Shown here one piece after another: positions 1,748 to 64,000 of a stretch of DNA of 64,000 nt. The notes beneath the pieces were generated by a model. It was not told the origin of the DNA and searched no databases. It saw nothing but the letters and a program-made list of their open reading frames with translations. The DNA is taken from IMG/VR virus record IMGVR_UViG_3300037541_000696, positions 14,500 to 78,499 of that record; one strand, given 5' to 3'. A program made the translations under genes and the position numbers. Each line of letters starts with the position of its first letter. Positions within the stretch are counted from its first letter, which is position 1. The DNA is from a virus.

Positions 1748-1798
1748 CCGAGGGAGTGAAGGCGATTCAGAGTAGTCAGCTCAAGATCTGGTGAAACA

Positions 1799-2083: not shown

Positions 2084-2154
2084 TTCAGCGGAATGAATCG
2101 CGAGCACACTGTAGGTCAAAAAATGATAGGATGCACGTACTGTAACAATACGTC

Positions 2155-2586: not shown

Positions 2587-2596
2587 CGGGAAAACT
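2587..2596 (+). promoter_or_regulatory. CGGGAAAACT late-gene box (copy 1 of 6)
   Basis: Exact 10-mer right after a stop codon, 22 nt before the tape measure start. Confidence 0.7.
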
Positions 2597-2618
2597 ACAA
2601 GCAGAATAGTTTAATTGC

Positions 2619-5600
2619 GTGGCAGATCTTCAGGTAACGCTTGCCTTTTTGCTTGAAAACCAAGCAGAAGTTGCGCGTGAACTTGAAAGGACTGGTGGGA
2701 TCGCTGGGGCGGATTTTGGGAAGGGGCTGTCAGCAGGAGCAAAAAAATCTTTAGATGATTTAATTGATCAAGCCACAAAAGCGGCCAAGCAGGTTGGACT
2801 TGTTTTTAATAAGCAAAAATTTCAATTTGAAACTATTCGCGGTGAGATTGTTCCGCCTGAAGCGCTTAAAAATCTTGCTCAGGTAAGCAAAGAATTTAAG
2901 ACGGCACAAAATGCTGTACAAGCTTTTAAGGCAGCATTGTCACAAGCATCTAGGCAATCTGTTCAAGACTTTAGCCTTATTGAGGCCGCAATAACAGGCG
3001 TTGCCATATCACTCAGCAATCGACTAACCGACGCATCTCTGTCGGCACTAGGTTCAATTCGCGGTCTTATCGGAGGTTTTATAGAGCTAGATAGCGAGCT
3101 GCGCCTAGCATCTGCGGCCGCAGGCGAACAAGGTGGTTATCAACGATTATCAACGGTTGTAAGCAAGGTCGGCATCGAAGCAGCAGGCACCACAAAAGAA
3201 GTCGCACAGCTTACTACATCACTTGTGCAGGCTGGATTTAGTGTCAAAGAAGTTGAAGCAGCGCTGCCCGGAATTGTTCGCGGCGCTGAGGCAACTGGAA
3301 CAGGATTCCAAGAATTTGGAAGGATTATTGCTGATACTTTAAGATCATTTGGGCTAGAAGCTTCTGAAACAGGGCGTGTTGTTGATGTGATGGCAAAAAC
3401 TGTGAATAGCAGTAGTGCCCAAATGGAAGACTTAAGTTATACACTTAAGTCTTCTGCCTTAACTGCTAAGGCTGTTGGCATCTCCATGGAAGAGTTGGCC
3501 GCTGCGACTGGCTTGCTGGCTAATGTAGGTATTCGCAGTAGTGTTGCTGGTACAGGGTTGCGCACAATGATTGAGCGACTGGGAAGGGCATCCGGTGGCG
3601 CATCTCAAGATGTTTTAGATCTGGCATGGGGGCAAGAGCGCCTTGCCAAGGCCATGGTAAAGGTTGGCGCCAGTGTAATTGATGCAAACGGAAATATGCT
3701 GCCTTTAGAGGATCAGTTAATTAAGCTCAAAGATGGGTTTAATGATTTTAGTCAAGCAGACCAAATTCAGCTTTCTAATATCTTATTTGGCGATGAAGCC
3801 GGTAATAAATTTCTGTCAATTATCAATCAAAGCACATCATCTATTCGAGATATGTTTGCTGAGATTAGAGACAGCAAAGGATCAACGGATGAGGCACGAA
3901 AAGAAATGGCTGGCTTCGGGCTTGAATTAAAGCAACTTGAAGGAACTCTTGGTAGTATTGGAAATGATATTGGCCAGGTTGTTGTTGCTGTATTGCGTCC
4001 ATTGCTGGGCATCGCAAATCAACTTGCCGGCACTGTATCGGGATTGCCGACACCAATTAAAGCTACTGCTATTGTGCTAACCGCACTTGGCGCCGCTGGA
4101 TTAGCAGCAAGTATAGGCATTGCGGCAATAGGACTTGCCGTAAAAAATATAGGTGGTTTTTCTGTATTGCGCGATCAGATTGCATTAGTAACTAGCACAA
4201 TTACTGGCCCATTTGCTGCGTCAACTGTTGTTTTTCTTGGTGTTGCCGCTGCTGTTGGGTTGATGACAGGTCAGTTTAGAAATATGGATGCTGTAACAAA
4301 ACAAGTTGTCATAACAATGATTTCATTAAGTGCAGCCATTGGCACTGCAATGGTACTTGCAAATGCACAAGTAATTGCCTCTTCGATTGCTGGATGGTCT
4401 GCTGTATTACTGCCAGTAGTTACATCATATAGGTCGTTGATTGCATTAACAAAAGGATTAACAATATCTCAAATTGCGTTAAATGTTGTCCAGGCTCCAT
4501 TGGCTGGAATTGCGGCTGTAATCGCTGGTATTACAAATGCCTATGCTGCACTAAGAAGAGGCATAGGACTTGTGGCGGCAGCAACCGCTTTTTTGCAGTC
4601 GCTAACATCTCCAGGAATGGGCGCCGCCAAGGTTGCCGCCGCTGCAATAGTTGGTGTTGCGGCCTATGGTGCGCTTAATCTTATGATTAAAGAGGCATCT
4701 AAGGAGACGTCTCAACTATCAGAAGAGCAGCGAGCTTTGCAAAGCGAAATAGAAGAAACACGTAAGCTAATTAGTGAGCAAAGAGAAATGGGATTAAATA
4801 CAGGATATGCGCAAAAAAGACTTGCTCAACTTGAGGTGAAAAAATCAGCTATTGCAGAACCGCTTGAATTTAATCTTGACATCGACCAAGCAGAAAAGAA
4901 GATTGAATTACTCAAAAAGAAACTAGAAGAATCAAAAGATGACACAACAAAAATAGCATCTGAAGCGCAAATTGAAGCGACTAGCCAATGGAAGCGATTT
5001 TTAGAGATATTGAAAAATAACGAAGATTTGAGCAAGCTTCCTGCGCCATTAAGAGAATATGCCGAAAAACTTAAGAAAGCAAACGATGATATACAAAAAT
5101 TACAAGAAAAAAGGCTAACTATTCCGATTGATGCGACTGCAGACAATGCGGAGATAAATAGGCGCGTAAGTGAACTTCAAGAATACATTAACGATTTGAC
5201 TGTTAATGTACGCATTTCAATTGAAAAATCAACAATACAAGATCAATTAAAGCGCGTTCAGCAAGAATTAAACAAAATGCCAAGCGGTGAAAACAAGGAA
5301 AAAACAAAGCTTGAAAAAGAGCGTGACCGTTTAAATGTAATGCTTAGCAAAAACAAGAATGAAGAAATTGATCGCGGCCAAAAAACAGTAGCTGTTGCAA
5401 AAGAAATAACAGCAACAAATGAAGCAAGAATTGCTTTAATTAAAACACAACAGGCAGAAGAAGAATCTTTATTGGCGCAACAGCAGATCACTGGAAAGAT
5501 CACTGAGTCGCAGCTAAGTAGAGAAACGTCAATGATTAGACTAAAAGCGATTGAATTAGAAAAAGAAATTAAACTTAAGCAGCTTAGTGCGTCAATTCAA

Positions 5601-7160
5601 GATGGCGGCAGAGAAAGTCCTTCCGCTATAACGCTACGAAAAGAAGTGGCGGATCTTAATGCTGAAAAAGCGCGAATACGAACAGATATGATCAAACAAG
5701 ACCGAGAATCTACGATTGCGAGAGAAACAGCCGCAATTCAATTGCAAAAATCTAGCTATCAGTCGCTAATGAGTCAGCGGCTGGCTGATGGAGAAATAAG
5801 TAAAGAAGCTTATGATAATGAATTAAGATACCTTGAAAAGATTACGCTAGAAAGAGAACGTGCGTCAAAAGTTTATCAACTTAATAATCCTGGCCTGTCT
5901 GCGCAAGATGATTTAGGCATTAGGCGCGAGATTGCTGATATTGATAAGTCATTAGCCGAAAACAAACTTGCCACGGCCGAGGCCTCAAGAGCAAAGCTTG
6001 AGAAGGAGCTTGATTTGCATTCAAGAATTTTAGATCTTTCTTCGCAAAATGCACAGACCGTAACAGATACAGCAAAAAATGGTTATGCGCTGCAGTTGCA
6101 ATACCTAGAAGCAATTATGGAGAATTCAAGAGCACGGCAAGAGCTGTCAAGATCAGAATTCGATGTAGCGCTTGCATTTCAAAATCGCGCTATCGCAGGC
6201 GCCGAGGCTCAACTTGCGGGCATGAGAGAATCATTAAGCAGCAAGCCTGAGGGAAGGGTATCAAAGAAAAAAGAAGAAGAAGCAAGGCTGCTAAAACTTG
6301 ATGCAATCGCCAGGAAAGAAGCAGAAATTGCTGGGATGAAAGAAAGGGCGTCTCAATTAGCTATACAAGCAAAAAGGGCTGAACTTGAAGGTCTTAATGA
6401 ACAAGAGCGCATGGAATGGTTGTCATTGGATCTCAAGCAACGCATGGCAGTGATTGATCAAGAAGCGAGATACGCTCAATCCAGGTTTCTTAATTATCAA
6501 CAAGCACTAGAATGGAGAAGATCTATGGCCAAGGCACGCGAGCCAGGCCTATCAGAAGAAGAAAGAAAGCAATATGAAGAAATCGCAAAAATACAAGGAG
6601 ATGCTCTTAACTTAAGCAAAAAAGACGTTGATTTTCAATATGAAAAACTAGGGTTGATTAAAGAAATGAACAAAGTTGAACGTGACACTTTAGCGATGAA
6701 TCAAAAATCAAGGAGAAATAAGGTCTATTCTGAACTCATATCACTTGGCGGTGCTCGTTTTGCTGGTGGTGATGTAATTCCAAGCAAAGATTATGTTATC
6801 AACGAGATTGGAAGAGAGAGCTTCTTGTCTGATTCTGGACAGCTTTCATGGATCAATCGCCCAGCCAATGCGCTGTGGCGGCCCCCTTCTCGGGGCATGG
6901 TTCTCCCGGCAGACGTATCGGCTCAGCTAGCAGGCGCTGGTCTTCTGCCAGGAGGTCGCTCAGGTACACCTGGAGGGCGCATTGAGCGCGTAGTTGAGGC
7001 GGCTGGCATGGCTGGCGGTGCAATGGCGTTGATTGCCGGCCATTCTGTCGCAATAGGAAAACTACAGAAGAGTATTGACCGGCTAGTTGCTAAGGATTGG
7101 AATGTTACTGTGCCAGTAGCAAGCAGTGCTAGATTACTGAAAACTGTTAGTGCATTCTAA
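2619..7160 (+). CDS. tail tape measure protein (TP901-type core)
   Basis: 1513 aa; Ala/Gly-rich TMP core (GIRSSVAGTGLRTM, LFGDEAG), hydrophobic mid segment, long coiled coil, C-terminal RFAGG..VINEIGRESF motif. Confidence 0.92.
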   Translation: MADLQVTLAFLLENQAEVARELERTGGIAGADFGKGLSAGAKKSLDDLIDQATKAAKQVGLVFNKQKFQFETIRGEIVPPEALKNLAQVSKEFKTAQNAVQAFKAALSQASRQSVQDFSLIEAAITGVAISLSNRLTDASLSALGSIRGLIGGFIELDSELRLASAAAGEQGGYQRLSTVVSKVGIEAAGTTKEVAQLTTSLVQAGFSVKEVEAALPGIVRGAEATGTGFQEFGRIIADTLRSFGLEASETGRVVDVMAKTVNSSSAQMEDLSYTLKSSALTAKAVGISMEELAAATGLLANVGIRSSVAGTGLRTMIERLGRASGGASQDVLDLAWGQERLAKAMVKVGASVIDANGNMLPLEDQLIKLKDGFNDFSQADQIQLSNILFGDEAGNKFLSIINQSTSSIRDMFAEIRDSKGSTDEARKEMAGFGLELKQLEGTLGSIGNDIGQVVVAVLRPLLGIANQLAGTVSGLPTPIKATAIVLTALGAAGLAASIGIAAIGLAVKNIGGFSVLRDQIALVTSTITGPFAASTVVFLGVAAAVGLMTGQFRNMDAVTKQVVITMISLSAAIGTAMVLANAQVIASSIAGWSAVLLPVVTSYRSLIALTKGLTISQIALNVVQAPLAGIAAVIAGITNAYAALRRGIGLVAAATAFLQSLTSPGMGAAKVAAAAIVGVAAYGALNLMIKEASKETSQLSEEQRALQSEIEETRKLISEQREMGLNTGYAQKRLAQLEVKKSAIAEPLEFNLDIDQAEKKIELLKKKLEESKDDTTKIASEAQIEATSQWKRFLEILKNNEDLSKLPAPLREYAEKLKKANDDIQKLQEKRLTIPIDATADNAEINRRVSELQEYINDLTVNVRISIEKSTIQDQLKRVQQELNKMPSGENKEKTKLEKERDRLNVMLSKNKNEEIDRGQKTVAVAKEITATNEARIALIKTQQAEEESLLAQQQITGKITESQLSRETSMIRLKAIELEKEIKLKQLSASIQDGGRESPSAITLRKEVADLNAEKARIRTDMIKQDRESTIARETAAIQLQKSSYQSLMSQRLADGEISKEAYDNELRYLEKITLERERASKVYQLNNPGLSAQDDLGIRREIADIDKSLAENKLATAEASRAKLEKELDLHSRILDLSSQNAQTVTDTAKNGYALQLQYLEAIMENSRARQELSRSEFDVALAFQNRAIAGAEAQLAGMRESLSSKPEGRVSKKKEEEARLLKLDAIARKEAEIAGMKERASQLAIQAKRAELEGLNEQERMEWLSLDLKQRMAVIDQEARYAQSRFLNYQQALEWRRSMAKAREPGLSEEERKQYEEIAKIQGDALNLSKKDVDFQYEKLGLIKEMNKVERDTLAMNQKSRRNKVYSELISLGGARFAGGDVIPSKDYVINEIGRESFLSDSGQLSWINRPANALWRPPSRGMVLPADVSAQLAGAGLLPGGRSGTPGGRIERVVEAAGMAGGAMALIAGHSVAIGKLQKSIDRLVAKDWNVTVPVASSARLLKTVSAF

Positions 7161-7900
7161 TGGCAATTACAATCTCTTATTCCGGCTCAACAGTTACCAT
7201 TCCAGATAGGCTTGTGAAGTCTCCGTTTGGATTTAACGAGGTCAATACAAGGCGTGGAAGAACAGCAGAAATGATCTCAATAGATGGGCTGCTTCTTAGG
7301 TCTGAAGCTGCAGCACTTGTCGCACTATTTAAGTCATATCGTGATGTAAAAATTACAGAAGAAGATCCACAAAAAACAGGTGTTACTGGAGCAACTGTTG
7401 CAATTACTGGATCTGGTGTTGGTTTTTCATGGAACAATAGGGCATGTTGGGTAGACAAGGCTCCATCGGTTGAATATAGGGGCGCATTTGTTAAGGTTAC
7501 GGCTGATTTTGTAGATGCAACACAAGCGCTGCAGATCTTGCTAGAGGAGCGTGATGATAGCGATGAAGACGGGATTAACCTTGGCACAATCACCCTTGGA
7601 TCTGCCGTGATTAACCTTTTGTCGTATCCATTGACCTATGAAGAACTACCGCAACCGAGCCGCAATCCTGCTGGCGTGCATGTTTTTACTGGCCAGCTTA
7701 CGCTTCAGGAAGCCAAAGAGGTGGAGGGATGGGTGACCGAAGTAAACAAAAACAATCTTGAATCATGGTTGACAACCGTTACCGCAACAACACCTGCGCC
7801 TAATACGTGGTATCCGGTTTCGTATCAACGTCCAGTAGCCAAGACAAGATTTGGAGCACTGACGTATGATGTAGGTCTTAAAATCATTAAAATACGATAA
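7160..7900 (+). CDS. putative distal tail / tail-tip protein
   Basis: Directly follows TMP with overlapping stop/start; beta-rich 246 aa. Confidence 0.55.
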   Translation: MAITISYSGSTVTIPDRLVKSPFGFNEVNTRRGRTAEMISIDGLLLRSEAAALVALFKSYRDVKITEEDPQKTGVTGATVAITGSGVGFSWNNRACWVDKAPSVEYRGAFVKVTADFVDATQALQILLEERDDSDEDGINLGTITLGSAVINLLSYPLTYEELPQPSRNPAGVHVFTGQLTLQEAKEVEGWVTEVNKNNLESWLTTVTATTPAPNTWYPVSYQRPVAKTRFGALTYDVGLKIIKIR

Positions 7901-10761
7901 TGGCTGTTGATACTAGGAGTTGGTCGTGGTGCAACCTAGGGAAGTTGTCTCCAGACGCTACAACACTGTCTGAGACGCACCTACAAGGCTCGGGAGGAGG
8001 TGTCATCAAGGTCACCGGCACGATCAACCTATCTGGAATCTATCGCCCGTCAGTGGGCACAGAAGTGTTCCTGGCGGCAAGTGACGGGCAAAGATGGATA
8101 TGCAGAATTCCTCGTAAGTTACGCGTAATTGATAGCTTTGCGGATCCATTGCGCAAGATCACTACCGTATCAGTTGGGTGCAAGTTTGCTTATTTTGAAA
8201 ATAGAAAAGCTCCTGTGCTTTTGCGTTCGGTAACAGAAGAAGAAGCCAACCCATTTGTCACGCAATTGGAGCGTGAACTTAGGACGCAGACAATATCATC
8301 AAAATTTGTAGCAGAAAAGATATTGCAGGAGCTTGGTCTTACAGCAGCAAGCTCCATCCCGTTTACGAGCCATCGCATCATGAGCGAATGGGACCTATCT
8401 GGCGGTTATGTTCAAGAATTAGCAAAGATAGCAGAAGCTGAATGCTATCGCTGCAGGTTAAACGAGTATGAACAGGTAGAATTTATTAACCTACTGAATC
8501 AAGGTGTTAGTGCTGCACCATTGCTCACCGAAAATCAGCTAGTAGATATTTCCCCTCAAACTGTTGGCGATCTACCGGCAGAAGCCGTCTATGCGTCATA
8601 TTCGTATAATGTACTCAGGCCTCAACCTAAAGAAACGGATACGTTAAAGCGTCACTGGGAACGAGATGAAAGCACATCGGTTGAGCAGTATATTCACAAC
8701 GGCCCAGATGAAATAGAAAGCGGAACATTTGTTTCGTCTAGGAGAACAGAAACTGAATATGATACAAAAGATAGAGTTAAAAGGAGAGTCGAAACATCGG
8801 CAAACTTAACAGGTACAACAATTGCAATCACTGAATATACCTATGAAGCTCCAGCGCCGCAGCGAAATGAAGACGGCACGCTGCCGCCACCAGATGAATT
8901 TAATGATTATACGGTTGTTCAAAAAGAAGAATACAGGCAAACATCCCCGATTGCCGATATTGCTGGAAGTTGTGGATTTGAAGGTTCGTTAGGTGAATTA
9001 CGAGCGCTTGGCACCTATCTAAGCGCAAAGCGAACAACTGAATATGATAGAGATAAAGTTTCTGGAATTACAAAGCAAGTAACGCGTAATTGGGTGCCTT
9101 TTGGTAGCACACCATTTGGATCAGATGCCGTGCAAAAAAGTGCATTTGATATGTCAGTAGGTGATTTAATTGCTAGCGCAAGCGCATTGGTTGAATATGG
9201 AAGTGAAGTTAGCATAAGAACAGAGCGTGAATATGGATTACGCAAAAGGCCAAGTCAGCAGGAGCGTAATTTATCATCTGATCGGCTGTATCCAAATTTT
9301 GCCCAAAGAAGTGATTTTGCGTGGACAACTGGATCGGCAACATCACAAACAAGCATTGAGCTTTCGCCTCCATTTGTGTCTGATGATCGAATGGAAAAAA
9401 GCACCGTCAATGGTGTAGTGACGTGGACATATCAACCGTCAGACGCCTATAGGCAAGCATTGAATTATGCACGCACAGAAAACAAGCTACTTTTAGGGAA
9501 TCGCTCTGGCGCTGGCATTCAGATCAGGTTAATTGATGCCCCAGCAAGGCCTTTTGATTTGTTTTATCTTCGCATGAATAATTGCACAGCGGCATATAGG
9601 TCAAATGGCATGACGTGGACTATAAAAGGGGATGGAATCATTGTATCAGTCGATGCTTTATTTATGGGCGCAATAGATGGCAATATCAATGACGCATGGT
9701 TTCCTCTTCCTAGTGGAATCACATCACTTCCAAGCCTATACGCCATTGCAACAAATTCTAACCCATTGCCATCAAACGCAATAAACATACCATCAAATTT
9801 TGATCCAACAAATGTTGATCTAACTGCGCTATTTGCATCACTCCCGAGTGGTCAGGCGCCAGTTCCTGCAGCCACGTTGAATCCGTCTGCGATAGTATTG
9901 CCGTATCAAGAAACATTGCCAATACATGCTGGGATTCAAGTGGGACTTAGTGTTGAAATTGTTGAACCAGACCTGCCGGCTCAATCATTGGTGGCCGGAG
10001 TAGACGTTGCTGCGTTGATCACTGCGATGCCAGCACAGGTTAGCTTGATTGCAGGAGTCGAAGTTGGATTGTCTTATACTGAAGAATCTACTGCAAGTGA
10101 TGTTGTATTTCAGCTTCAAATGTCTGGCTCAAATGGAAGCACTACATTTACAGATTTAAGCCCTAATGCAATAGCTGTAACAACAGGCGGAGGAGCGCAA
10201 GTCAATGGTAACGAACTTTTGTTAGATGGAGATGATGATTATTTGTATGCCGAAAACTCGGCTCTTGTGTTGACATCCGATCAGCCGTGGACAGTCGAGA
10301 TGTTTGTAACTCCGCTAGATATTCCTTTTTATTCTTTCATTGGTATAATGACATTTTTCAATGATTCGCAAGTTGATCAAAACGGATCGCCTATTATTCA
10401 ATCAGGAATCACCCTTGGCATTATGGCAGGGTACTGGGCGTTTGGTGATGCAAATATGACTACAGATTTTGAGCTAGAAGCACAAGTAAATACAAAAGTT
10501 CATGTTGCAATTGTGGCATCAGGTGATGGCACCTTTAGGCTTGCAATTGCGGGAACATTTATTGCGACTAGAACTTTCTATGGCGTATATCAAGAAGGAG
10601 CCAACAAGCTTTATATTGGCAAAATTGAAGATCCAAATATAAATGCAGGCACTCCATATGATCTTGATTTTAATGGTAAGATAGGACCGTTCCGAATCAC
10701 ATCCGCAGAACTTTATACTGGAGCAACATTTACACCACCCACATCATTCCCTAATCCATAA
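7900..10761 (+). CDS. tail hub/minor tail protein with C-terminal LamG/concanavalin-like domain
   Basis: C-terminus GSNGSTTFTDLS..LLLDGDDDYL..WTVEMFV..HVAIV..FNGKIGPFRIT..YTGATFTPPT is LamG-like; position after TMP. Confidence 0.7.
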   Translation: MAVDTRSWSWCNLGKLSPDATTLSETHLQGSGGGVIKVTGTINLSGIYRPSVGTEVFLAASDGQRWICRIPRKLRVIDSFADPLRKITTVSVGCKFAYFENRKAPVLLRSVTEEEANPFVTQLERELRTQTISSKFVAEKILQELGLTAASSIPFTSHRIMSEWDLSGGYVQELAKIAEAECYRCRLNEYEQVEFINLLNQGVSAAPLLTENQLVDISPQTVGDLPAEAVYASYSYNVLRPQPKETDTLKRHWERDESTSVEQYIHNGPDEIESGTFVSSRRTETEYDTKDRVKRRVETSANLTGTTIAITEYTYEAPAPQRNEDGTLPPPDEFNDYTVVQKEEYRQTSPIADIAGSCGFEGSLGELRALGTYLSAKRTTEYDRDKVSGITKQVTRNWVPFGSTPFGSDAVQKSAFDMSVGDLIASASALVEYGSEVSIRTEREYGLRKRPSQQERNLSSDRLYPNFAQRSDFAWTTGSATSQTSIELSPPFVSDDRMEKSTVNGVVTWTYQPSDAYRQALNYARTENKLLLGNRSGAGIQIRLIDAPARPFDLFYLRMNNCTAAYRSNGMTWTIKGDGIIVSVDALFMGAIDGNINDAWFPLPSGITSLPSLYAIATNSNPLPSNAINIPSNFDPTNVDLTALFASLPSGQAPVPAATLNPSAIVLPYQETLPIHAGIQVGLSVEIVEPDLPAQSLVAGVDVAALITAMPAQVSLIAGVEVGLSYTEESTASDVVFQLQMSGSNGSTTFTDLSPNAIAVTTGGGAQVNGNELLLDGDDDYLYAENSALVLTSDQPWTVEMFVTPLDIPFYSFIGIMTFFNDSQVDQNGSPIIQSGITLGIMAGYWAFGDANMTTDFELEAQVNTKVHVAIVASGDGTFRLAIAGTFIATRTFYGVYQEGANKLYIGKIEDPNINAGTPYDLDFNGKIGPFRITSAELYTGATFTPPTSFPNP

Positions 10762-10771
10762 CGGGAAAACT
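10762..10771 (+). promoter_or_regulatory. CGGGAAAACT late-gene box (copy 2)
   Basis: Exact 10-mer right after a stop codon, 19 nt before ATG 10791. Confidence 0.7.
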
Positions 10772-10790
10772 ATCACAACTCATTAGTCCT

Positions 10791-11234
10791 ATGGCGTCAG
10801 TTTTTCAGGTCAGTACAAGCGAACTTCTTAGGGTGCATTCTTCATCCTACGAGGGCAAGGTGGTCAGGTTTTGCCTTGCTTTTAACTCTGTATTAACAGT
10901 TGAATCAACTACTGCGCAATGGGATGCGGTTGAGCTAGCTAGCACCAATGGTTATGCGCGATCTGTTATTACAATTCCTTCCGCGAGTTATGATGGTACA
11001 ATTGGAATGGCTAAAACTGCAGAATTAACGGCTACATTTACTGCGTCTGGTGCTGGATTTACCTTTAATCGCGTGTATGGCGTCATTGGAACTGTGTCCG
11101 GTGGTGTTACAACATGGAACACAAATATCAGTTATTTATGGGCTGAAACTGAATCTATTGGATTGTCACCTGGCGTTTCAAGGCCATATAAGGTAGTATT
11201 TTTGTCAGATAACAAAACATCTAGCCCATTGTGA
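10791..11234 (+). CDS. minor tail/virion structural protein
   Basis: ELASTNGYAR..ATFTASG motif common in phage minor tail proteins. Confidence 0.55.
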   Translation: MASVFQVSTSELLRVHSSSYEGKVVRFCLAFNSVLTVESTTAQWDAVELASTNGYARSVITIPSASYDGTIGMAKTAELTATFTASGAGFTFNRVYGVIGTVSGGVTTWNTNISYLWAETESIGLSPGVSRPYKVVFLSDNKTSSPL

Positions 11235-12406: not shown

Positions 12407-12533
12407 TCAATCGCAATCTGAAGAATCAGCAGAAATTTCTTCTTTGCTTGCATTAAGCAATCGCGCAAAGTTGCAAGCTCGCGAACGAGACAATAGAACA
12501 CTTGCGGAAGTAATGAGGCAAGCTAAGGAATAG
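12393..12533 (+). CDS. small hypothetical protein (46 aa, MQQPNQSQSEESAE...)
   Basis: Manual translation; fills the gap between the 391-aa ORF and the next CGGGAAAACT box. Confidence 0.5.
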   Translation: MQQPNQSQSEESAEISSLLALSNRAKLQARERDNRTLAEVMRQAKE

Positions 12534-12537
12534 TAAT

Positions 12538-12547
12538 CGGGAAAACT
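12538..12547 (+). promoter_or_regulatory. CGGGAAAACT late-gene box (copy 3)
   Basis: Exact 10-mer upstream of the scaffold gene. Confidence 0.7.
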
Positions 12548-12592
12548 TAACCTGCAACTTATGCCGGCTGAGCGATTCACCGGTCATAATCC

Positions 12593-13417
12593 ATGAAAAA
12601 AATCTGGCTCAACAAGCTCCCCTTTGCCAGTGATTTCCCAATCCCCACCGTTGATGATGCGCCTGAAGGTGATCAAGTCGGAGGGGGTTCCGCTGATGAC
12701 TCTATCGGCGAATTAGACCATTCTGATGATGATAGCGAGCCCCTTGGAGAAGAGGGCAGGAAAGCGCTGACAAGAGAACGGCAGGCTCGAAAAGAGCGTG
12801 AGCGCGAATTGTCACAATTGAGGGAGCAGCTCAAGGCTGTTGCTGAAATCAACCCGGATTTGTATAAAAAAACACTTGAGCGAGCGGAAGAACTTAAGCG
12901 CACGCTTGAGGAAAAGGAGCGTGAGACCACTGAGGCGACAAGGCGCATTCGCGAAAAAGCTGACTCCGAGGTTCGAGCGGCAAGGCAGGCCGCTGATGCC
13001 GCTGAGCGGGCGCGAATTGATCTGCTGACCAAGACTGCAGGGCAGCAGATTTTTAGGTTGAATAAGGGGCTGGATGAAGTTGATGAAGTGCTCGGTCAAA
13101 CATCATTCGATGCGTGGTGGAGACTTCATGGAAGCCAACACCTTAAATGGGACAACAAATTGAATAACGTTGTTGTTGTTGACAAGGATGGGGATCCGAT
13201 CACTGAAGATGGCAAGCCGGTTGATCCTGTCAAGTGGCTAGACGAAGTTGCCGATAAGTCACCAATGGTGGCTCAATACTTCAGATCAAAATCTGGTGAG
13301 GGATCTGGTGGTCTTCAGGGTGCACGAAATGTGCGCACTGTGACAAGTAGAAACAAACAAGATCTAGCAAAACTTAGTCCCGACAAGCTGCTTGAGGAGC
13401 ATTACAGCAACAAATAA
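12593..13417 (+). CDS. capsid scaffolding protein
   Basis: Acidic flexible N-terminus, EEGRKALTRERQARK coiled coil, C-terminal G-rich linker; directly upstream of the major capsid gene. Confidence 0.75.
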   Translation: MKKIWLNKLPFASDFPIPTVDDAPEGDQVGGGSADDSIGELDHSDDDSEPLGEEGRKALTRERQARKERERELSQLREQLKAVAEINPDLYKKTLERAEELKRTLEEKERETTEATRRIREKADSEVRAARQAADAAERARIDLLTKTAGQQIFRLNKGLDEVDEVLGQTSFDAWWRLHGSQHLKWDNKLNNVVVVDKDGDPITEDGKPVDPVKWLDEVADKSPMVAQYFRSKSGEGSGGLQGARNVRTVTSRNKQDLAKLSPDKLLEEHYSNK

Positions 13418-13428
13418 GAATTGTTGAC

Positions 13429-13438
13429 CGGGAAAACT
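13429..13438 (+). promoter_or_regulatory. CGGGAAAACT late-gene box (copy 4)
   Basis: Exact 10-mer preceding the 139-nt structured leader of the capsid gene. Confidence 0.7.
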
Positions 13439-13577
13439 GCGGATAGGTGAGGCGCGATGCCAAATCTATCCGCTTTTTGATGCGACATCAAAAAGCTTTT
13501 TGCGATTGCTGTATTCAATGGCGCGATGCCAATGAAAGCGCAACTTTCAAAACTGGCAACCCTTCTCATTACAGGTA

Positions 13578-14534
13578 ATGTCTTCCACTACACTTTGGTC
13601 TCATTTTGAGGCTCGCGCCGAACTTGGCGCTCCTGCCCTAGAGCTTGCTGCCCTTCAAATCCTGCGAAATGGTCCCCTAGCTGGCCTTATTCCGTGGGTA
13701 GATATTGTAGGAATGACCTACAACTTCGCCCTTCAAGATGAGCTGCCCAAGGTTAAAGCTCGTCTATTTGATGAGGCAAGCGAGCGCGGACAGGGCACCA
13801 CCATGAAAGGTGCGCAAAATGTGCACATTTACAGCTATGATGTTCGCACTGATTCATCAAAGCTGGCGCTGCTTGGTCAGGGTACGCACAATCGGCAGGT
13901 AAAAGCCGCCATTCAATCGTTGCGGTTGGCAATCGAAAACGACTTCCTGAATGGGAACGATGCGCTTAGCGGCGGCCGCGAAATGGATGGAGTTCGCAAA
14001 CAAATCCCCGTGTCGCAACAGGTGGTCAATGCCAGCGGCGGCGCCGGGCTTAAATTGTCAAAACTCGATGAATTGATCGCCGAGGTAGATGGCCCCAACG
14101 AAGAGAAGGTACTCGTTCTTCCCAAAAAGCTGAAGACCAAATTTGGCGCGGCGGTGCGCAACATTGGGGTGTCCGGTCTTTACATTCAAGGGATTGACCA
14201 GCTTGGTCGATCCGCTCAGATGTACGACGGCGTTCCCCTGATTGAGACTGATGTTCGGGATGACAACACCCCGATTCAACCCTTCACTGAATCAAACAGT
14301 ACAACGACTATCTACTGTATGCGGCTCGGCGAAGGATTTACCAGTGGGATCCAATCTCCCGCATATAACGAAGCCGGTGAATTGACTCAAGGGCTTGTAA
14401 TTTACGACCTTAATGAGTCATTTACCACGGCAACACGCGCTACGCGATTCACTTGGCACTGCGGCGCTGTTGTAGAGGATCCGAACTCAATCGCTTCCCT
14501 CTCTGGCATCACACTTGCGGACATCACCGCTTGA
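13578..14534 (+). CDS. major capsid protein (HK97 fold)
   Basis: 318 aa; FLNGND..REMDGVRK, KLDELIAEV, YDGVPLIE, IASLSGIT motifs typical of this capsid family; follows scaffold. Confidence 0.85.
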   Translation: MSSTTLWSHFEARAELGAPALELAALQILRNGPLAGLIPWVDIVGMTYNFALQDELPKVKARLFDEASERGQGTTMKGAQNVHIYSYDVRTDSSKLALLGQGTHNRQVKAAIQSLRLAIENDFLNGNDALSGGREMDGVRKQIPVSQQVVNASGGAGLKLSKLDELIAEVDGPNEEKVLVLPKKLKTKFGAAVRNIGVSGLYIQGIDQLGRSAQMYDGVPLIETDVRDDNTPIQPFTESNSTTTIYCMRLGEGFTSGIQSPAYNEAGELTQGLVIYDLNESFTTATRATRFTWHCGAVVEDPNSIASLSGITLADITA

Positions 14535-14572
14535 TTTTGATCATCAAACCATTCAACCACTGAGGTCACTCA

Positions 14573-15067
14573 ATGTCTCGCCCTACAGGTATCTTTCTCC
14601 AACGTCCCTATCTCCGCAGCCGCGAAAATGTTCTTTTTGGAGCCGTTCGTGATGGCGAAGGTGTAGCAGCCGAAACGCGCACTGGCGCTGCACGGCTGCT
14701 GCCGGATAAGCTCAATGGCCAATCCAATGCGCTGATTGTTGCTGTCGGAGCACTGTCTAATGCGTCCGGTGGCTACTGGATTGAAGTTGCGCATGTGCCG
14801 ATCGGTGGCACAATTTCTGATGCTAACCCTTCGGGATATGTCCGCATCGGCAGCATCTCTTTTGATGGGATGAATCCTACCGAAGCGATCTTCTCCAAGG
14901 TTCAACTGGAAAGTTTGATTAAGGCCAATGCCTCGCCAGCCCTGACAGTTGATCCGCGTGTTGTCGCCATCCGCCTTGTGGCTGGCACAGGCACGGGCAG
15001 CGGCCAAAATGGCCTTGCCGTTCCCACAAACGCCACTGGAGCTGTGATTCATTATCAGCCCACCTGA
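14573..15067 (+). CDS. putative capsid decoration/cement protein
   Basis: Beta-rich 164 aa directly after MCP, followed by a terminator. Confidence 0.5.
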   Translation: MSRPTGIFLQRPYLRSRENVLFGAVRDGEGVAAETRTGAARLLPDKLNGQSNALIVAVGALSNASGGYWIEVAHVPIGGTISDANPSGYVRIGSISFDGMNPTEAIFSKVQLESLIKANASPALTVDPRVVAIRLVAGTGTGSGQNGLAVPTNATGAVIHYQPT

Positions 15068-15091
15068 TCTTGATTGCACATCTGATACAAT

Positions 15092-15114
15092 GGGAGGGTC
15101 AATCCTCCCTTTTT
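15092..15114 (+). terminator. intrinsic terminator of the capsid operon
   Basis: GGGAGG-gtcaat-CCTCCC followed by a T-run. Confidence 0.6.
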
Positions 15115-15130
15115 CTTTACCATAAAAATC

Positions 15131-15400
15131 ATGCTTGAATGTCAATCAAGTTTTTCACTTGCCACGAGCTGTGAAAAGATTGACTTTTGCTCACTGCAAA
15201 GAAAGCAATGGGAAAATGAAATTCACGCTGATCCCGTTCGTGTTAATTACGGCAATGGGTATGGCACAATGTTCCTTGAAGAACACACTTATTCAGATAT
15301 GTTGCGTCACCTTATCAGTGATTGCGGATGGGATGAATTAAATATGATATTGCAAGGATTGAAAAACTACGATTCTAGTCAACTCCAAGAAATCACTTAG
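15131..15400 (+). CDS. hypothetical protein
   Basis: ORF track; TGaTACAAT extended -10 at 15083-15091 upstream. Confidence 0.45.
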   Translation: MLECQSSFSLATSCEKIDFCSLQRKQWENEIHADPVRVNYGNGYGTMFLEEHTYSDMLRHLISDCGWDELNMILQGLKNYDSSQLQEIT

Positions 15401-15423
15401 CACATCATCACTCTAAAATCATC

Positions 15424-15648
15424 ATGACTTTTGCATTTAATCCTCACGCCAGTCAAGAAGCTAACGAAAACTTTGTTAGATCTTTAGGGCAAGAAAGTGA
15501 GCAAGAATCGCCACCTATTGAGGCGGCGGAGCCAAATCTTAAGCCAGTGCTTAATCTAAAGCCCAAGCGCCAACGCGCACGCGTTGAAGACGGCAAGTTT
15601 GCTGGCGACAATCCAGAGACACCACAAAATGAAGCATGGAAAGAATAA
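15424..15648 (+). CDS. small hypothetical protein with RARxxDGKFxGDNPETPxNEAW motif
   Basis: C-terminal motif recurrent in phage small proteins near head genes. Confidence 0.6.
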   Translation: MTFAFNPHASQEANENFVRSLGQESEQESPPIEAAEPNLKPVLNLKPKRQRARVEDGKFAGDNPETPQNEAWKE

Positions 15649-15650
15649 TG

Positions 15651-15660
15651 CGGGAAAACT
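15651..15660 (+). promoter_or_regulatory. CGGGAAAACT late-gene box (copy 5)
   Basis: Exact 10-mer, 20 nt before ATG 15681. Confidence 0.7.
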
Positions 15661-15680
15661 AGGTCAACAAGTGTAACGCC

Positions 15681-16037
15681 ATGGCTTGGGTTACAAAAAC
15701 TTGGGAAATGGAGCAAGGCAAAGATGCTTTGCTTCCTTTTAGATTTTGGCAAGATTCTGCCAAAACACAGCCATGGCCATTTATTGGATGGGATGTAAAT
15801 GCAACTGTTAGCGATACAAGAGGGCGTAATGTATGGCCAGTTACAATAAGGGCAACACCTGAGAGCGGTCTGCTAGACTTGATTTTTCCTGAGAGTTTAG
15901 TAAATGCGCTTAAGGCTGGTAGGACTTATCGTTATGATTGCGGCGGCTGGCCCCCTGGGGCAACCGCAGCGGATGATCACTTCCTGGCCACAGGTCCCGT
16001 CACGGTGGCGCTACGAACCTCTCGGAGGGATCCATGA
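15681..16037 (+). CDS. tail-fibre anchor/adaptor (BppU N-terminal-like)
   Basis: MEQG...GRTYRYD...FLATGPVTV pattern; precedes tail fibre. Confidence 0.55.
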   Translation: MAWVTKTWEMEQGKDALLPFRFWQDSAKTQPWPFIGWDVNATVSDTRGRNVWPVTIRATPESGLLDLIFPESLVNALKAGRTYRYDCGGWPPGATAADDHFLATGPVTVALRTSRRDP

Positions 16038-18250
16038 CCTGTCCGGCGGTAGTCGATGTAATCACTCCTGGCCCCCCCGGAATAGGGCTTCCGTCCGGAG
16101 TTGGATTCGCGGAGTATGCGATAGTCAAGGACGGGAATACACCTTATTTATATAAGCTAGTAAGCCTTGAGCAGGTAGGACTTCCTCAGGCTCTTGGTAT
16201 AACAGCCTCGCCTACATTTACTGGAATAACACTATCGGGATTTACCTCTGCCTCTGTTGGAATTGTAACATCCGGCGCCAATGGTCAACTTGCCAGGGTT
16301 TCAATTGGCAGTGGATTGTCTATCGTAAATGGTGCGCTAGTTGCTTCTGGAAGTGCAGGCACCAACCTATCTTATGATCCTGCTACAAGAATTCTCGCCA
16401 GTAGCACTGGAGACGATGTAACGCTACCGTTAGCCACAACACTAGCAGCAGGCCTGCAATCTGCAGCCGATAAAACCAAGCTTGATGCTATTACTGTAGA
16501 TACAGCGATAAGAACTATAGAACGCGTCAGGAATACAACTGGAGCTGAAATTCCAAGGGGATCTGTTGTTCGTATTCCATCGCCTGGATCATCGGGAACT
16601 ACGCTGCTAGTTGCGCTAGCTGATGCATCCGAGGAGTCAACAGCAGCAAATACCTATGGTATTGCAGAAAATGCAATTCCGCATAATTCAGATGGTATTG
16701 TCGTAACATCAGGTGAACTTACTGGATTAAATACAGATCATCTTGTAGAAGGTGGATTGGTTTATTTATCTGAAATTGCAGGGCAAACAACTAGCACGAG
16801 GCCAACGCAGCCTGCGCATGGCGTTATTCTTGGATGGTGCATTAAAAAAGGGCCTGGCACAAGCGGCATTCTTGCTGTAAAGATTGCTAACGGCCAGGAA
16901 CTAAATGAGTTGCACGATGTTTTAATCAATAATCCAACAGAAGATCAATTTTTGCGCAGATCTGGTGATTTGTGGATCAACGAAACTGTTGATTTGTATT
17001 CAACTTTTGCTGCCCCACTTGGCTTTACCGTAACAGGATCTGATACTGCTTCAATCTCCCTGGCATTTTCCACTGGATATAGCCTTCCAACAACCGCCAA
17101 GCAAGGCGAATGGGACACGGCTTATTCTGAGCGCAATAGGTGGGATGGTGGATCTACAGGGCTCAATCAGGCCACTGGCAGATCAAGCCTAGGCCTTGGA
17201 TCTGCCGCGACGCGAGACGCAGGATCAACGCCAGGAAACGTTCCGATCCTAGATAGCAATGCCTTAATTCCTAGCATATTGCTGCCAGGATTTGTAGATG
17301 ACGTATTAGAATTTGCAAATCTTGCCGCATTTCCTACATTAGGAGAAAGTGGCAAACTTTATATAAGCCTAGCAACAAACAGACAATATAGATGGTCTGG
17401 CTCTGTTTATGTTGAAATCAATCCGTCACCAGGTAGCACAGATAGCGTACCCGAAGGTTCTATAAATTTATATTTTACGAGCGCAAGAGCCTCCGCCGCT
17501 GCGCCTGTTCAATCCGTAGCCGGCAAACAAGGCAGTGTCACACTTAGTGTTGATGATATTGCTAATGCTGTTTCAACGTCTGATTTACGTCTAACAGATT
17601 CGCGAGAATGGTCCGCTGAGACCATAGGACAGGCAGAGGCGGAGGCTGGAACTGCAACCACCCGTCGGGCGTGGACTTCAGAGCGCGTGCGCCAGGCAGT
17701 TCTAGGCTGGTGGAATTCGATCACTTCCAGCCTAGGCCGATCACTTGTGGGCGCCGCGACCCAGGTGGACGCCCGCAGTGTGATTGGCGCTGGCACTTCC
17801 AGCTTGGTCCTGGGAACCGCCGCCCCCCTTGGGCTGGCGGGCACGGCCGCAGCGGGCACGGCGAGCACTGCTTCCCCGAGTGATCACCAGCACCAGCGCG
17901 ACGCGACAACATTTATAGTCCCACTGTCATTTACGACAGCCCCGGCTGGGAATAGTGCCAACATTATAGCTAGGCTCTCTCTTCCATTCTCGTTCGACAT
18001 TCTTTCAGTCACGCTCGAATGTGAATCGGCCGTTACAACAAACCCAATCATCGCCAATATCACTCTTGGTGGCACGACTATTTTTAGCACAAAACCACAG
18101 ATAAATGTAGGAGGAACGACTACTGGCAACACCCCAGTATTTTCTATTACAACCGGAGCCTCAGGAAGTATTTTGAGGTTCTACATTGACCAGGCAGCCG
18201 GTGGCGGTCTATTTTTAAACGCAAACGTTACGATCAGGAGGACCAATTAA
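16034..18250 (+). CDS. tail fibre protein
   Basis: Modular fibre motifs: ELNELHDVLI, LGLGSAATRD, LPGFVDDVLEF..FPTLGESGKLY, STDSVPEGSINLYFT, PVQSVAGKQGSVTL. Confidence 0.85.
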   Translation: MTCPAVVDVITPGPPGIGLPSGVGFAEYAIVKDGNTPYLYKLVSLEQVGLPQALGITASPTFTGITLSGFTSASVGIVTSGANGQLARVSIGSGLSIVNGALVASGSAGTNLSYDPATRILASSTGDDVTLPLATTLAAGLQSAADKTKLDAITVDTAIRTIERVRNTTGAEIPRGSVVRIPSPGSSGTTLLVALADASEESTAANTYGIAENAIPHNSDGIVVTSGELTGLNTDHLVEGGLVYLSEIAGQTTSTRPTQPAHGVILGWCIKKGPGTSGILAVKIANGQELNELHDVLINNPTEDQFLRRSGDLWINETVDLYSTFAAPLGFTVTGSDTASISLAFSTGYSLPTTAKQGEWDTAYSERNRWDGGSTGLNQATGRSSLGLGSAATRDAGSTPGNVPILDSNALIPSILLPGFVDDVLEFANLAAFPTLGESGKLYISLATNRQYRWSGSVYVEINPSPGSTDSVPEGSINLYFTSARASAAAPVQSVAGKQGSVTLSVDDIANAVSTSDLRLTDSREWSAETIGQAEAEAGTATTRRAWTSERVRQAVLGWWNSITSSLGRSLVGAATQVDARSVIGAGTSSLVLGTAAPLGLAGTAAAGTASTASPSDHQHQRDATTFIVPLSFTTAPAGNSANIIARLSLPFSFDILSVTLECESAVTTNPIIANITLGGTTIFSTKPQINVGGTTTGNTPVFSITTGASGSILRFYIDQAAGGGLFLNANVTIRRTN

Positions 18251-18251
18251 G

Positions 18252-18767
18252 ATGAGCGAATATATCATTGCCAACAGTGAAACAGGAGAAGAAAAGGCTT
18301 GGCCGAGGAGGGCGGGAGAGGCTGTAATCGGCCTTCAGGAGCCCCCCTGGCACGTGCTGGAAGTGATTCGCGAGCCGACGCCTGAGGTGGCACCTGGACA
18401 GGTTGCCGTTCCGTCGAAAACGCAGGATTTCCAGAATGGCAGGCTGGTTTATGGCTGGCAAATGGAAGACCTACCCCCGCCAGGCCCCAAATACCAGGAA
18501 TTCTATGATGGCTTGATTGCCAGCAATGTTTATGCCAATGTGGTCTCGACTCCTGGGAAAACAGGAGACCAAGCGGCGGCAATGACTGTTTTTCTGGGAG
18601 CAATCTCAGAGGCAAAATCAGGCCGGGAAAATCGGCCGGCGCTGCAGTCTGCCATCTGGCGGTTGCTGGGCCAGATGGCGTTGACGGAGGCTGGCCTTGC
18701 GGAGTTGCAGGGCCTGATGAACGAAAACCACTTGGCTGGGATTTATCAACTGGAGCCACCGGGATGA
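18252..18767 (+). CDS. tail-fibre-associated protein (possible assembly chaperone)
   Basis: Follows the fibre gene; GC-rich. Confidence 0.5.
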   Translation: MSEYIIANSETGEEKAWPRRAGEAVIGLQEPPWHVLEVIREPTPEVAPGQVAVPSKTQDFQNGRLVYGWQMEDLPPPGPKYQEFYDGLIASNVYANVVSTPGKTGDQAAAMTVFLGAISEAKSGRENRPALQSAIWRLLGQMALTEAGLAELQGLMNENHLAGIYQLEPPG

Positions 18768-19507
18768 ATATAATTTATGTAGCAAATCGCCCTTTGTTTT
18801 CAAATATTATTCTTCCTTCAGAAATCACAACCGCTTTTTGGGGTGACGCTTCAGATGCGTCTACTGTAATAACATCTGGTGGGTTTTTGTCGCAATGGAA
18901 CGACAAAAGTGGTAATGCGAGACACGCCACGCAAGCGGTCGGATCTAGTCAGCCAGCCTATACCTTAAACGGGCAAAATAATTTGAACTGTCTAACGCTT
19001 GACGGTTCCAATGATTGGCTTGCGCTTCCTAATTCAGTAGCTCCGACAGGACCCCATGCGGTTTTTGCTGTATGCAGACCTAACCATTCATCTTTGTCGA
19101 GTGGAATAATTATCAGCAGATCCTATAATTGGGGATCCTTTTATCTAAATTCCGCCACATTTGGCACATCTGCGTTTCATAACATAGGTGTCAATGGAGT
19201 CAGTGAAGCAAAAGCAACAGTAACAGGTTTGCAGAATAATACACTAAAAATGTTCACCGCAATTTATGATAATACAGCCGTCAGGCTTTCAGTGAACAAG
19301 GGACCATTCATAAGCACGCCATACACCCCAAATCTGACTTACCATGCAAACGATCAGGCTACAATAGGTGCACTGCGCGAAGGCACCGCAAACGTTTCCG
19401 CCTTGTTTAGGGGCGCTATGTGCGAGCTAATTGTTACACATTACGTTCCAACTTCTGAAGTGATCACAGGCATTCAGAACCATCTTGATAGGTGGTTTCC
19501 GACGTAA
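18764..19507 (+). CDS. LamG/lectin-like virion protein
   Basis: WGDASDAST..SQWNDKSGNARHATQ..LDGSNDWL..FRGAMCELIV motifs. Confidence 0.7.
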   Translation: MNIIYVANRPLFSNIILPSEITTAFWGDASDASTVITSGGFLSQWNDKSGNARHATQAVGSSQPAYTLNGQNNLNCLTLDGSNDWLALPNSVAPTGPHAVFAVCRPNHSSLSSGIIISRSYNWGSFYLNSATFGTSAFHNIGVNGVSEAKATVTGLQNNTLKMFTAIYDNTAVRLSVNKGPFISTPYTPNLTYHANDQATIGALREGTANVSALFRGAMCELIVTHYVPTSEVITGIQNHLDRWFPT

Positions 19508-19514
19508 TCAACAA

Positions 19515-19524
19515 CGGGAAAACT
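19515..19524 (+). promoter_or_regulatory. CGGGAAAACT late-gene box (copy 6)
   Basis: Exact 10-mer, 20 nt before ATG 19545. Confidence 0.7.
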
Positions 19525-19544
19525 TAATCAACCCTGCTAGGATC

Positions 19545-41649: not shown

Positions 41650-41731
41650 GAGAGCATGGCGGAATTGGTAGACGCGCTGGGTTTAGGTTCCAGTGACTTC
41701 GATCGTGGGGGTTCAAGTCCCCCTGCTCTCA
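41650..41731 (+). tRNA. tRNA-Leu(UAG)
   Basis: Cloverleaf GAGAGCA/TGCTCTC, anticodon loop TT-TAG-GT, long variable arm, GGGGG-TTCAAGT-CCCCC; no encoded CCA. Confidence 0.92.
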
Positions 41732-61900: not shown

Positions 61901-61940
61901 CGATTAAGTAGTGTATAATTAAAGCACATGTCATATTCTC

Positions 61941-63588: not shown

Positions 63589-64000
63589 ATGACCCAACAG
63601 GCTTTGCGACCAACACGCGCTACAGGGGCTCGAAGCTTGAAGATTCGAGCGGTTTCGGCGCCTGCTGAATCAAACAAAAAGATACAGGCATTTCCACCGA
63701 CAGAATACAGTGAGCAGCTTGCGATAGACAACATTAAGCTGGCACAAAAGCACGCGCATCTAATGGCGGTGCGCACTGGAATGCCATTTGATGACCTATA
63801 TCAAGTTGCGTTGGTGGGGTTAATAAAGGGCTGTCGACGATATGACCCAAAGAAGCTTAGCCCAAAAACAGGTGAACCATGCAAGCTAAGCACAATCGCG
63901 GTGCCTTTTATTGAAGGCGCCATGAGGCAGTATTTGCGCGATCGTGGCCATAGCAGTGGGGTTAGGTTTCCTGATCGCTGGCGTGATAAAGCTTCAATTG
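63589..64000 (+). CDS. sigma-70 family, SigF/SigB-type RNA polymerase sigma factor (truncated by window edge)
   Basis: Manual translation: DNIKLAQKHAH..PFDDLYQVALVGLIKGCRRYDP..LSTIAVPFIEGAMRQYLRD..VRFP (regions 2.1-2.4). Not in ORF track. Confidence 0.85.
   Translation, partial: MTQQALRPTRATGARSLKIRAVSAPAESNKKIQAFPPTEYSEQLAIDNIKLAQKHAHLMAVRTGMPFDDLYQVALVGLIKGCRRYDPKKLSPKTGEPCKLSTIAVPFIEGAMRQYLRDRGHSSGVRFPDRWRDKASI

Follow-up and report, generated by a model that had tools for sequence, protein, structure and literature searches.

The locus described here raises the question of how an uncultured phage has its virion genes transcribed. The window, which is the whole stretch of DNA that was analyzed, comprises 64,000 nucleotides (nt), bases 14500-78499 (the last 64 kb) of the 78,499-bp virus record IMGVR_UViG_3300037541_000696. 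Within it the 10-mer CGGGAAAACT, referred to below as the box, recurs before virion genes, and a gene for a sigma factor lies at its far end. As judged by sequence comparison, the box is probably a late promoter that consists of a -10 element only and would be read by the host core RNA polymerase carrying the phage sigma, and CGGGAAAACT is most likely the core of a late-promoter class with about a dozen members.

An exact-match scan of the window found six copies of the box, all on the + strand, at the positions that the first-pass annotation of this DNA had reported. Using 100 dinucleotide-preserving shuffles of the window, 0.07 copies were expected; no shuffle held more than one, and 0/100 reached six. 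One-mismatch copies elsewhere in the window were not more frequent than chance. The whole record holds nine exact copies, again all on the + strand, three of which fall within its first 14.5 kb, and three near copies show the same layout, namely CGGGAAAAAT at record base 1480, GGGGAAAACT at 2808 and GGGGAAAAAT at 7119. All 12 sites lie on the strand of the genes downstream of them and within the virion-gene arm (record 1480-34023), with none in the other 44 kb, which extends to the whole record the earlier observation that no exact copy occurs outside the structural arm. Each of the 12 is intergenic or placed within the last codons of the upstream gene. The boxes of the window, with the genes and leaders behind them, are as follows:

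2587..2596, + strand: late box 1, directly after the stop of the open reading frame (ORF) 2155-2586 and 22 nt before the tape-measure GTG
2619..7160, + strand: tape-measure protein gene (PF10145, PhageMin_Tail, 1.3e-39), the first gene after box 1
10762..10771, + strand: late box 2, directly after the stop of an ORF of 953 amino acids (aa) and 19 nt before the ATG at 10791
12538..12547, + strand: late box 3, 45 nt before the scaffold gene
12564..12583, + strand: small hairpin of the scaffold leader, formed by CCGG, the 12-nt loop CTGAGCGATTCA and CCGG
12593..13417, + strand: head scaffolding protein gene (phrog_206)
13429..13438, + strand: late box 4, 139 nt before the major capsid gene
13439..13577, + strand: structured capsid leader (z = -3.5), in which GGCGCGATGCC is present twice
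13578..14534, + strand: major capsid protein gene, with a weak SU10_MCP match and 29% identity to the PSS2 major head protein
15651..15660, + strand: late box 5, 20 nt before the ATG at 15681 (a 118-aa ORF, then a 738-aa ORF)
19515..19524, + strand: late box 6, the last of the arm, 20 nt before the ATG at 19545, which is in frame with the ORF 19485-19808

From the end of the box to the next start codon, the six window copies measure 22, 19, 45, 139, 20 and 20 nt; four of them thus stand 19-22 nt before a start, and the scaffold and capsid genes have longer, structured leaders, both as originally described. Across the record, a start codon follows 19-25 nt downstream at 10 of the 12 sites, with no Shine-Dalgarno (SD) sequence in between, and the remaining two sites are those upstream of the scaffold and capsid leaders. 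The genes behind the boxes are those for portal-proximal head, tail, tape-measure, scaffold and capsid functions, and the arm as a whole encodes the portal, an SPP1-gp7-like head protein, a tail protein, the tape measure, the scaffold and the major capsid protein.

All 12 sites contain GGGAAA, and this hexamer of the box is identical to verified -10 hexamers of the SigB family. The SigB consensus -10 is GGG(A/T)A(A/T), in which the GGG and the fifth-position A are nearly invariant, and for S. coelicolor SigB homologues both GGGAAA and GGGAAC have been mapped as -10 hexamers (PMC8346170), in agreement with the initial statement that SigB/SigF-type sigmas read GGG(T/A)A-type elements. At the pilA1 promoter of Synechocystis SigF, GGG occupies -15 to -13 and is followed by TAAG, and the '-12 region' is the most important part (PMC2532724). 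An information profile over 147 unique sites across the phage family revealed a sole further peak, at the sixth and seventh nt after the box (A, then G/A; 0.97 and 0.62 bit). This peak lies 9-10 nt after GGGAAA, and a SigB/SigF-type start is expected ~8-11 nt after the hexamer; the purines 6-7 nt past the box would fit a transcription start, which at box 1 is predicted near 2603, within CAG at 2602-2604. Upstream of the box, the information in the same profile does not exceed ~0.4 bit per position and ~0.3 bit in the -35 zone; GTTT occurs between -26 and -10 at 1% of the sites, the same as in control windows, and the TAGGC upstream element at 0%. To judge from these profiles the putative promoters have no -35 element, which generalizes to the family what the first-pass annotation had remarked of the window. 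Matches to sigma-70-type promoters number 23 in the arm, where 31.6 were expected, and so are not in excess, and simple k-mer counts in the other arm gave nothing clear as an early-promoter motif.

The putative reader of the box is encoded at the end of the window, where three features follow one another:

61914..61919, + strand: TATAAT hexamer, 21 nt before the terminase ATG
61941..63560, + strand: large terminase subunit (TerL) gene, 35% identity to TerL of S-CBS2, S-CRES and PSS2
63589..63999, + strand: sigma factor gene, first 137 codons, preceded by the ribosome site AAGGTGGAG and cut by the end of the record

The ORF 63589-63999, recognized at the outset as region 2 of a SigF/SigB-type sigma, indeed matches PF04542 (28 bits; cut-off, 24 bits), and among the NCBIfam models SigF (NF005644) and SigB/F/G (TIGR02980) fit it best. 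It is the sole sigma-like gene of the record, being the sole region-2 match, and a search of the large ORFs (a class II ribonucleotide reductase with an intein, ThyX, a methylase-like protein and others) for a phage RNA polymerase found none. The terminase gene stands directly upstream of it. The record ends inside the sigma gene and begins inside the portal gene (locus L102, 1-1476), leaving out ~0.6 kb with the 3' half of the sigma gene, the 5' end of the portal gene and probably a box; CheckV gives the record a completeness of 100% despite this gap. The related genome G001 (75.9 kb) has the order TerL, 297-aa sigma, portal, with a box 7 nt after the sigma stop, which places the sigma gene immediately upstream of the first late gene, that for the portal. 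Upstream of TerL and sigma there are TATAAT-type and SD (AAGGTGGAG) signals and no box; specifically, no late box precedes the terminase, and the TATAAT at 61914 is a candidate host-type promoter for the TerL-sigma pair. This arrangement fits an expression of both genes from ordinary signals, presumably ahead of the late genes.

As a full-length proxy of the sigma we used P0005, a database protein of 300 aa that is 98% identical over the 137 aa encoded in the window. It scored 56.7 bits against NF005644 and 52.3 bits against TIGR02980, below both curated cut-offs (261 and 234 bits, respectively), and it matched only profile positions ~5-167, that is, regions 2-3. The protein is a member of the sigma-70 family nearest to the SigB/SigF/SigG subfamily, without being filed as a member of the latter. 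Region-4 Pfam families gave no match in five family members at E values up to 5, PF04545 was not found in the record, which lacks the C-terminal half of the sigma, and when aligned by profile to S. aureus SigB and Geobacillus SigF, the sigma can be followed only as far as region 4.1. An AlphaFold2 (AF2) model of moderate confidence (pLDDT 72) nevertheless has three helices at 189-245, which align with sigma domain 4 of solved holoenzymes, and residues 34-249 of the model were superposed by VIA-align on residues 370-611 of E. coli sigma70 with Z ~11, a value to be read against the high background Z of helical folds.

The sigma also carries an insertion, which had been assigned to region 2.3 and suggested to retune the specificity. 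The insertion is real and comprises seven residues relative to Geobacillus SigF and S. aureus SigB, but it sits in the loop between regions 2.2 and 2.3 and not in the DNA-reading part. It is absent from the sigmas of L057, L084, L085 and L091, which keep the AAAAC box, and from that of L141, which keeps the box of its sister clade. Since members without the insertion share the box of their kin, the insertion does not set the specificity, and we rejected it as a determinant.

To see how far the association of box and sigma extends, relatives were collected with a sigma-homologue profile, which found 64 viral contigs, and with a portal-based search, which added more distant relatives having a sigma gene before the portal gene. 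More than 60 contigs of uncultured freshwater phages, with GC contents of 42-69%, retain the exact 10-mer, often at 5-8 copies per 10 kb, and in these the sigmas are only 41-46% identical to that of G001. The contigs that keep the box have the same sigma gene between terminase and portal, and every locus covering the position carries it at the head of the boxed arm. The exact box was found 0 times on the opposite strand in all box-keeping loci examined, and at 99 of 128 unique exact sites an ORF-opening ATG or GTG lies 17-27 nt downstream, with a mode of 21, compared with 13% of random positions. In G001 a late-gene block is inverted and stands elsewhere in the genome, and the boxes have moved along with it, still on the gene strand. 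Rare extra copies are found upstream of the sigma gene in relatives, such as at 6681 in L073. The distant sigma loci L098-L100, which are HIP1-rich and have a normal region 4, contain neither the box nor the tail motif of the sigma described below.

Variant boxes occupy the same places in two sister clades, being either GGGAAACCT or GGGAACCCT. The sub-clade of L133, L134 and L137 mostly has CGGGAAACCT, and the sister clade L141-L148 has GGGAACCCT plus GGGAAC[GAT]CT variants, at orthologous sites, one of them directly behind the sigma stop, with 20-27 nt from the site to the start codon. Across the variants the GGG, the next two A's and the final CT are constant, and only two inner positions vary. 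In the sigma tree the CC variant forms a single clade with 100/100 support, and the sigma segment at regions 2.4/3.0 differs among the three box-variant groups. Main-clade phages of equal GC retain AAAAC, and thus the variants follow lineage rather than base composition.

Two of the leaders deserve a closer description. The scaffold-leader hairpin reads TCGG...CCGA in G001, at the same place and with the same loop, which is a compensatory change. The capsid leader, the first ~47 nt of which are identical in G001, opens with a hairpin (13439-13473) whose first base directly adjoins the box and behind which stands a T-run (TTTTT); another terminator-like hairpin occupies 13472-13496. With a transcription start 6-7 nt past box 4, the capsid mRNA would be without the 5' arm of the first hairpin, which RNA reading through from the scaffold gene would have; this hairpin could therefore stop read-through and spare the transcripts initiated at the box. 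At 13547-13553 the leader also has an AAAACT without GGG, 23 nt before the capsid ATG and so at the usual distance from box to start, which could be a decayed or weak second box, or chance.

How the switch would work can be laid out in steps. Host RNA polymerase would transcribe the rightward arm, which ends with the terminase and sigma genes, from ordinary promoters. The phage sigma, a divergent relative of SigB/SigF/SigG, would then displace the host sigma on the core polymerase, and the resulting holoenzyme would open the DNA at the box, which, numbered on the frame of the Synechocystis pilA1 promoter, would have its GGG at about -15 to -13, its conserved A at -11 and its last T at -7. The transcripts would begin at the purine 6-7 nt past the box and have leaders of ~15 nt that lack an SD sequence, with no -35 being used. 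The first-pass annotation had likewise taken the 10-mer for a -35-less promoter of the phage sigma, and every computed comparison lends support to this core idea, namely the conservation of the box, its clade-specific variants, its -10 identity, a geometry resembling that of the Synechocystis SigF promoter, the purine peak behind it and the lack of a -35 before it. On the other side stand several observations. The box variants track the whole phage lineage and not only the sigma; kin share everything, so that the co-variation of box and sigma, although it follows the sigma clades as anticipated, does not single out the sigma as the reader of the box. The sigma scores so far below the SigB/F/G cut-offs that the promoter rules of that family may not transfer to it. 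Terminator-like hairpins lie downstream of the box in the capsid leader, and the runs that hold the stretch are DNA runs, from 14 studies, with no RNA run listed among them. Finally, a promoter has no need of so tight a spacing to the start codon, which would suit a signal at the RNA level equally well.

This spacing, with its mode of 21 nt, is the best argument for a role of the box in RNA, as a processing site or as a translation-initiation signal for SD-less genes in long late transcripts. Such a role would also go with the structured scaffold and capsid leaders and with the scarcity of SD-like 4-mers, which precede just 21% of all genes vs a background of 15%. We consider it unlikely, given that two boxes stand 45 and 139 nt from the start, that box and leaders match no Rfam family and that no complementarity to the 3' tail of the 16S rRNA was seen by inspection; recognition as DNA is favored because the motif is the same as a -10 hexamer read by sigma factors, the gene of a cognate sigma lies next to it, and the positions that vary are those that a sigma reads least, while GGG, A and T are fixed. 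That the promoter is instead read by a host holoenzyme, for example one with the host group-3 SigF, the phage sigma acting elsewhere, such as on host genes, seems quite improbable to us. The box does resemble the host-type SigF -12 region GGGTAAG, and -10s of the GGGAAA type are shared by several cellular SigB homologues, which show cross-recognition. However, the box is identical in phages of 42-69% GC and its variants follow phage and sigma clades at equal GC, no TAGGC-type or GTTT-type upstream element accompanies it, and the sigma gene heads the boxed arm in every locus that covers this position; moreover, A rather than T follows the GGG, and the T at -12 is possibly important for Synechocystis SigF (PMC2532724). 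Many phage ORFs are without assigned function, and one of them might encode another DNA-binding late activator or an anti-terminator for which the box is the site, the sigma having a different target. We give this very little credence, as a short, asymmetric and non-palindromic site without a partner half-site is typical of a sigma element and not of a dimeric regulator, and the box stands at -10 distance from the start-site-like purine peak. A -10-only late promoter read by the phage sigma is therefore the reading that we carry forward.

The C-terminus of the sigma consists of a variable, low-confidence linker followed by a conserved short motif, which in the low-GC clade, P0005 included, is QLDLF directly followed by the stop codon. 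QLDLF is the consensus motif for binding the beta sliding clamp, as quoted in a study of phage Mu (bioRxiv 10.1101/2025.01.04.631326). All 37 unique family sigma tails contain Q[LAFC]x[LMFI][FLI], and 28 of the 37 contain QLxL[FL], with forms that include QLGLF, QLALF, QLVLF, QADLF and QFDMF. Low-GC and high-GC members encode QLDLF by different codons (CAA CTA GAC TTA TTT vs CAG TTG GAT TTG TTT), which indicates selection on the protein. Of 57 representatives (50% identity) with sigma-profile scores of 100 bits or more, 31 have the motif within the last 45 residues, vs 3.9 when the tails are shuffled; the figure for weaker matches is 9 of 93. Q..[LM]F was found in none of the other crude ORFs of the phage. 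In high-GC relatives, such as L058 at 10780-10830, the sigma ORF has no stop after QLDLF; the box is read through as G-K-T, and the ORF reaches the region of the portal start, gaining 9-72 residues.

A DnaN homologue with three beta-clamp domains is encoded at L102 13221-14306 (- strand), inside the late arm and just before the window. The gene is also present in G001 and G004 and is absent from the complete high-GC relatives G006, G010 and G012, which would have to use the host clamp, by analogy with Mu. It belongs to a minus-strand island that interrupts the late arm (L102 13221-14306 and window 2-2119, both - strand), contains no late box, and encodes DnaN, a Peptidase_C39_2/endolysin-like protein (window 995-1747) and three ORFs without a match.

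By analogy with T4 and Mu, the late switch might be a clamp-tethered sigma, with late transcription coupled to replication; we put this forward tentatively, as a possibility that falls somewhat short of likely. A three-domain SigF-like sigma with no -35 reading recognizable in its sequence would carry QLDLF on a flexible C-terminal tail, and clamps on replicating phage DNA, supplied by the host DnaN or, in the low-GC clade, by the phage's own DnaN, would bring the holoenzyme to the -10-only boxes or activate it there.

Late promoters served by a dedicated phage-encoded sigma are already known as a kind. In T4, late promoters consist of a -10 element only, and the epitope by which gp55 binds the gp45 clamp is C-terminal and follows a divergent linker (PMC2988020). 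The T4 system (gp55, gp33, gp45; promoter TATAAATA) thus shares with the one described here a -10-type element without further parts and a phage-encoded recognition protein, and the variable linker followed by QLDLF is reminiscent of the gp55 epitope. Unlike the present sigma, which by its modeled fold would be a three-domain protein, gp55 retains only sigma domain 2 and needs gp33, no counterpart of which was recognized here; the T4 clamp is the trimeric gp45, whereas the motif here is of the bacterial beta-clamp type and the phage clamp is a DnaN homologue confined to the low-GC sub-clade. In phage Mu, the late promoters have a -10 and no -35, and MuC, which works with host sigma70 and the host beta clamp, needs a QHDLF clamp motif (consensus QLDLF) for late transcription (bioRxiv 10.1101/2025.01.04.631326; PMC12867686). 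Mu therefore resembles the present phages in combining a -10 without a -35 with a clamp motif, the clamp binding being a prediction here, but MuC is a DNA-binding activator with an N-terminal motif, whereas in the present phages it is the sigma that bears the motif, at or close to the C-terminus. Should this sigma bind the clamp itself, it would be the first full-length sigma-70-family factor known to us to do so.

The promoters of B. subtilis SigB, the S. coelicolor SigB homologues and Synechocystis SigF share the GGG(A/T)A(A/T) hexamer with the box. These cellular promoters have a -35/-32 element (GTTTAA or TAGGC) 12-17 bp upstream, which the box sites lack, and in the box three further bases (ACT) and the preceding C are fixed in addition. 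The sigma-70-family proteins gp28 and gp33-34 of SPO1 and gp36 of phiEco32 also redirect the host core RNA polymerase to a phage motif before middle or late genes, with sigma sub-families and motifs that differ from those found here, and no clamp-binding motif is known to us in these sigmas.

The cyanosiphoviruses S-CRES1-3, S-CBS2 and PSS2 have a SigF-like sigma directly after terL, as here, with ~35% identity in TerL and ~30% in the sigma, and in them the sigma gene is followed by a primase gene and not by the portal gene. QGSLF is the C-terminus of S-CRES1 gp20 and is also encoded in S-CBS2, past the annotated stop and in a different frame, and the PSS2 sigma is without the C-terminal motif. 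The annotated sigma of S-CBS2 (L151, NC_015463.1, 3300-3590) appears frameshifted relative to S-CRES1 gp20, its conserved C-terminus ending LQGSLF being found in the +1 frame. No series of GGGAA-type boxes was seen in S-CRES1 or S-CBS2; the latter has no common box before its genes, only a single GGGTAT 17 nt before the sigma ATG. The TTGTCCACTAA repeats of S-CRES1 were considered as an analogous promoter and rejected, as they form two iteron-like tandem arrays that are not gene-proximal. These arrays (L101, 3243-3360 and 31507-31665) consist of ~21-bp GTCCAC-containing repeats beside AT-rich TATATA stretches and are probably origins. A megablast search of the arm against GenBank phages gave no match, and in the searchable literature the 10-mer was found only as unrelated primers, with no description of the box or of a sigma bearing a clamp motif. 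What appears new here, on the sequence evidence, is the combination of a SigB/F-like sigma with strictly -35-less promoters, predicted leaders of ~15 nt without SD, and a consensus clamp-binding tail.

Several other features of the genome were recorded. Three very basic paralogues with starts of the types MARGG... and MPRGRR...Y.RD (L102 1515-2786, 2841-4274 and 8963-10072) each have their own box, and N-termini homologous to theirs recur behind boxes in high-GC relatives. Some 40 copies of GGCNA(T/C)GGC, in a 6-base register that corresponds to a Gly-X dipeptide repeat in small late ORFs, are present at L102 6234-6632, and the repeat is also abundant in L040, L041 and L043. The class II ribonucleotide reductase gene (window 48288-51680) is interrupted by an intein with a LAGLIDADG domain, and the 572 aa of ThyX (window 33223-34941) include a long extension at the N-terminus. 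The only matches of an Rfam search were three tRNA genes (Leu-TAG, Met-CAT and Thr-TGT) in window 41650-41810 and 57753-57825.

The lineage was seen in DNA runs of the 14 studies and in >80 viral contigs, and the runs in which the DNA occurs are metagenomes of lakes and freshwater. Cyanosiphoviruses are the cultured phages nearest in TerL, sigma and capsid; the only match among 185,579 species genomes is a contig with five boxes that was binned in a cyanobacterial metagenome-assembled genome; and SD use is weak in this phage. A cyanobacterial host is therefore likely on these sequence grounds.

For this large lineage of uncultured lake phages, the box, the predicted start and the leader provide a precise and testable definition of late promoters, and the pairing of box variants with sigma variants constitutes a natural specificity-swap series, from which it could be learned how SigB/F-type sigmas read positions -10 and -9. 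If the clamp-tethered version holds, expression of the virion genes would be coupled to replication by a third version of the logic of T4 gp55/gp45 and Mu MuC/beta, built from distinct parts and widespread in uncultured freshwater, probably cyanobacterial, siphoviruses and, by the QGSLF tail, probably also present in S-CRES/S-CBS2-type phages. Should the QLDLF tail bind the beta clamp, the coupling of late transcription to replication would be a recurrent answer to the lack of a -35 in late promoters, T4 and Mu would be no oddities, and sigma factors would become clients of the clamp.

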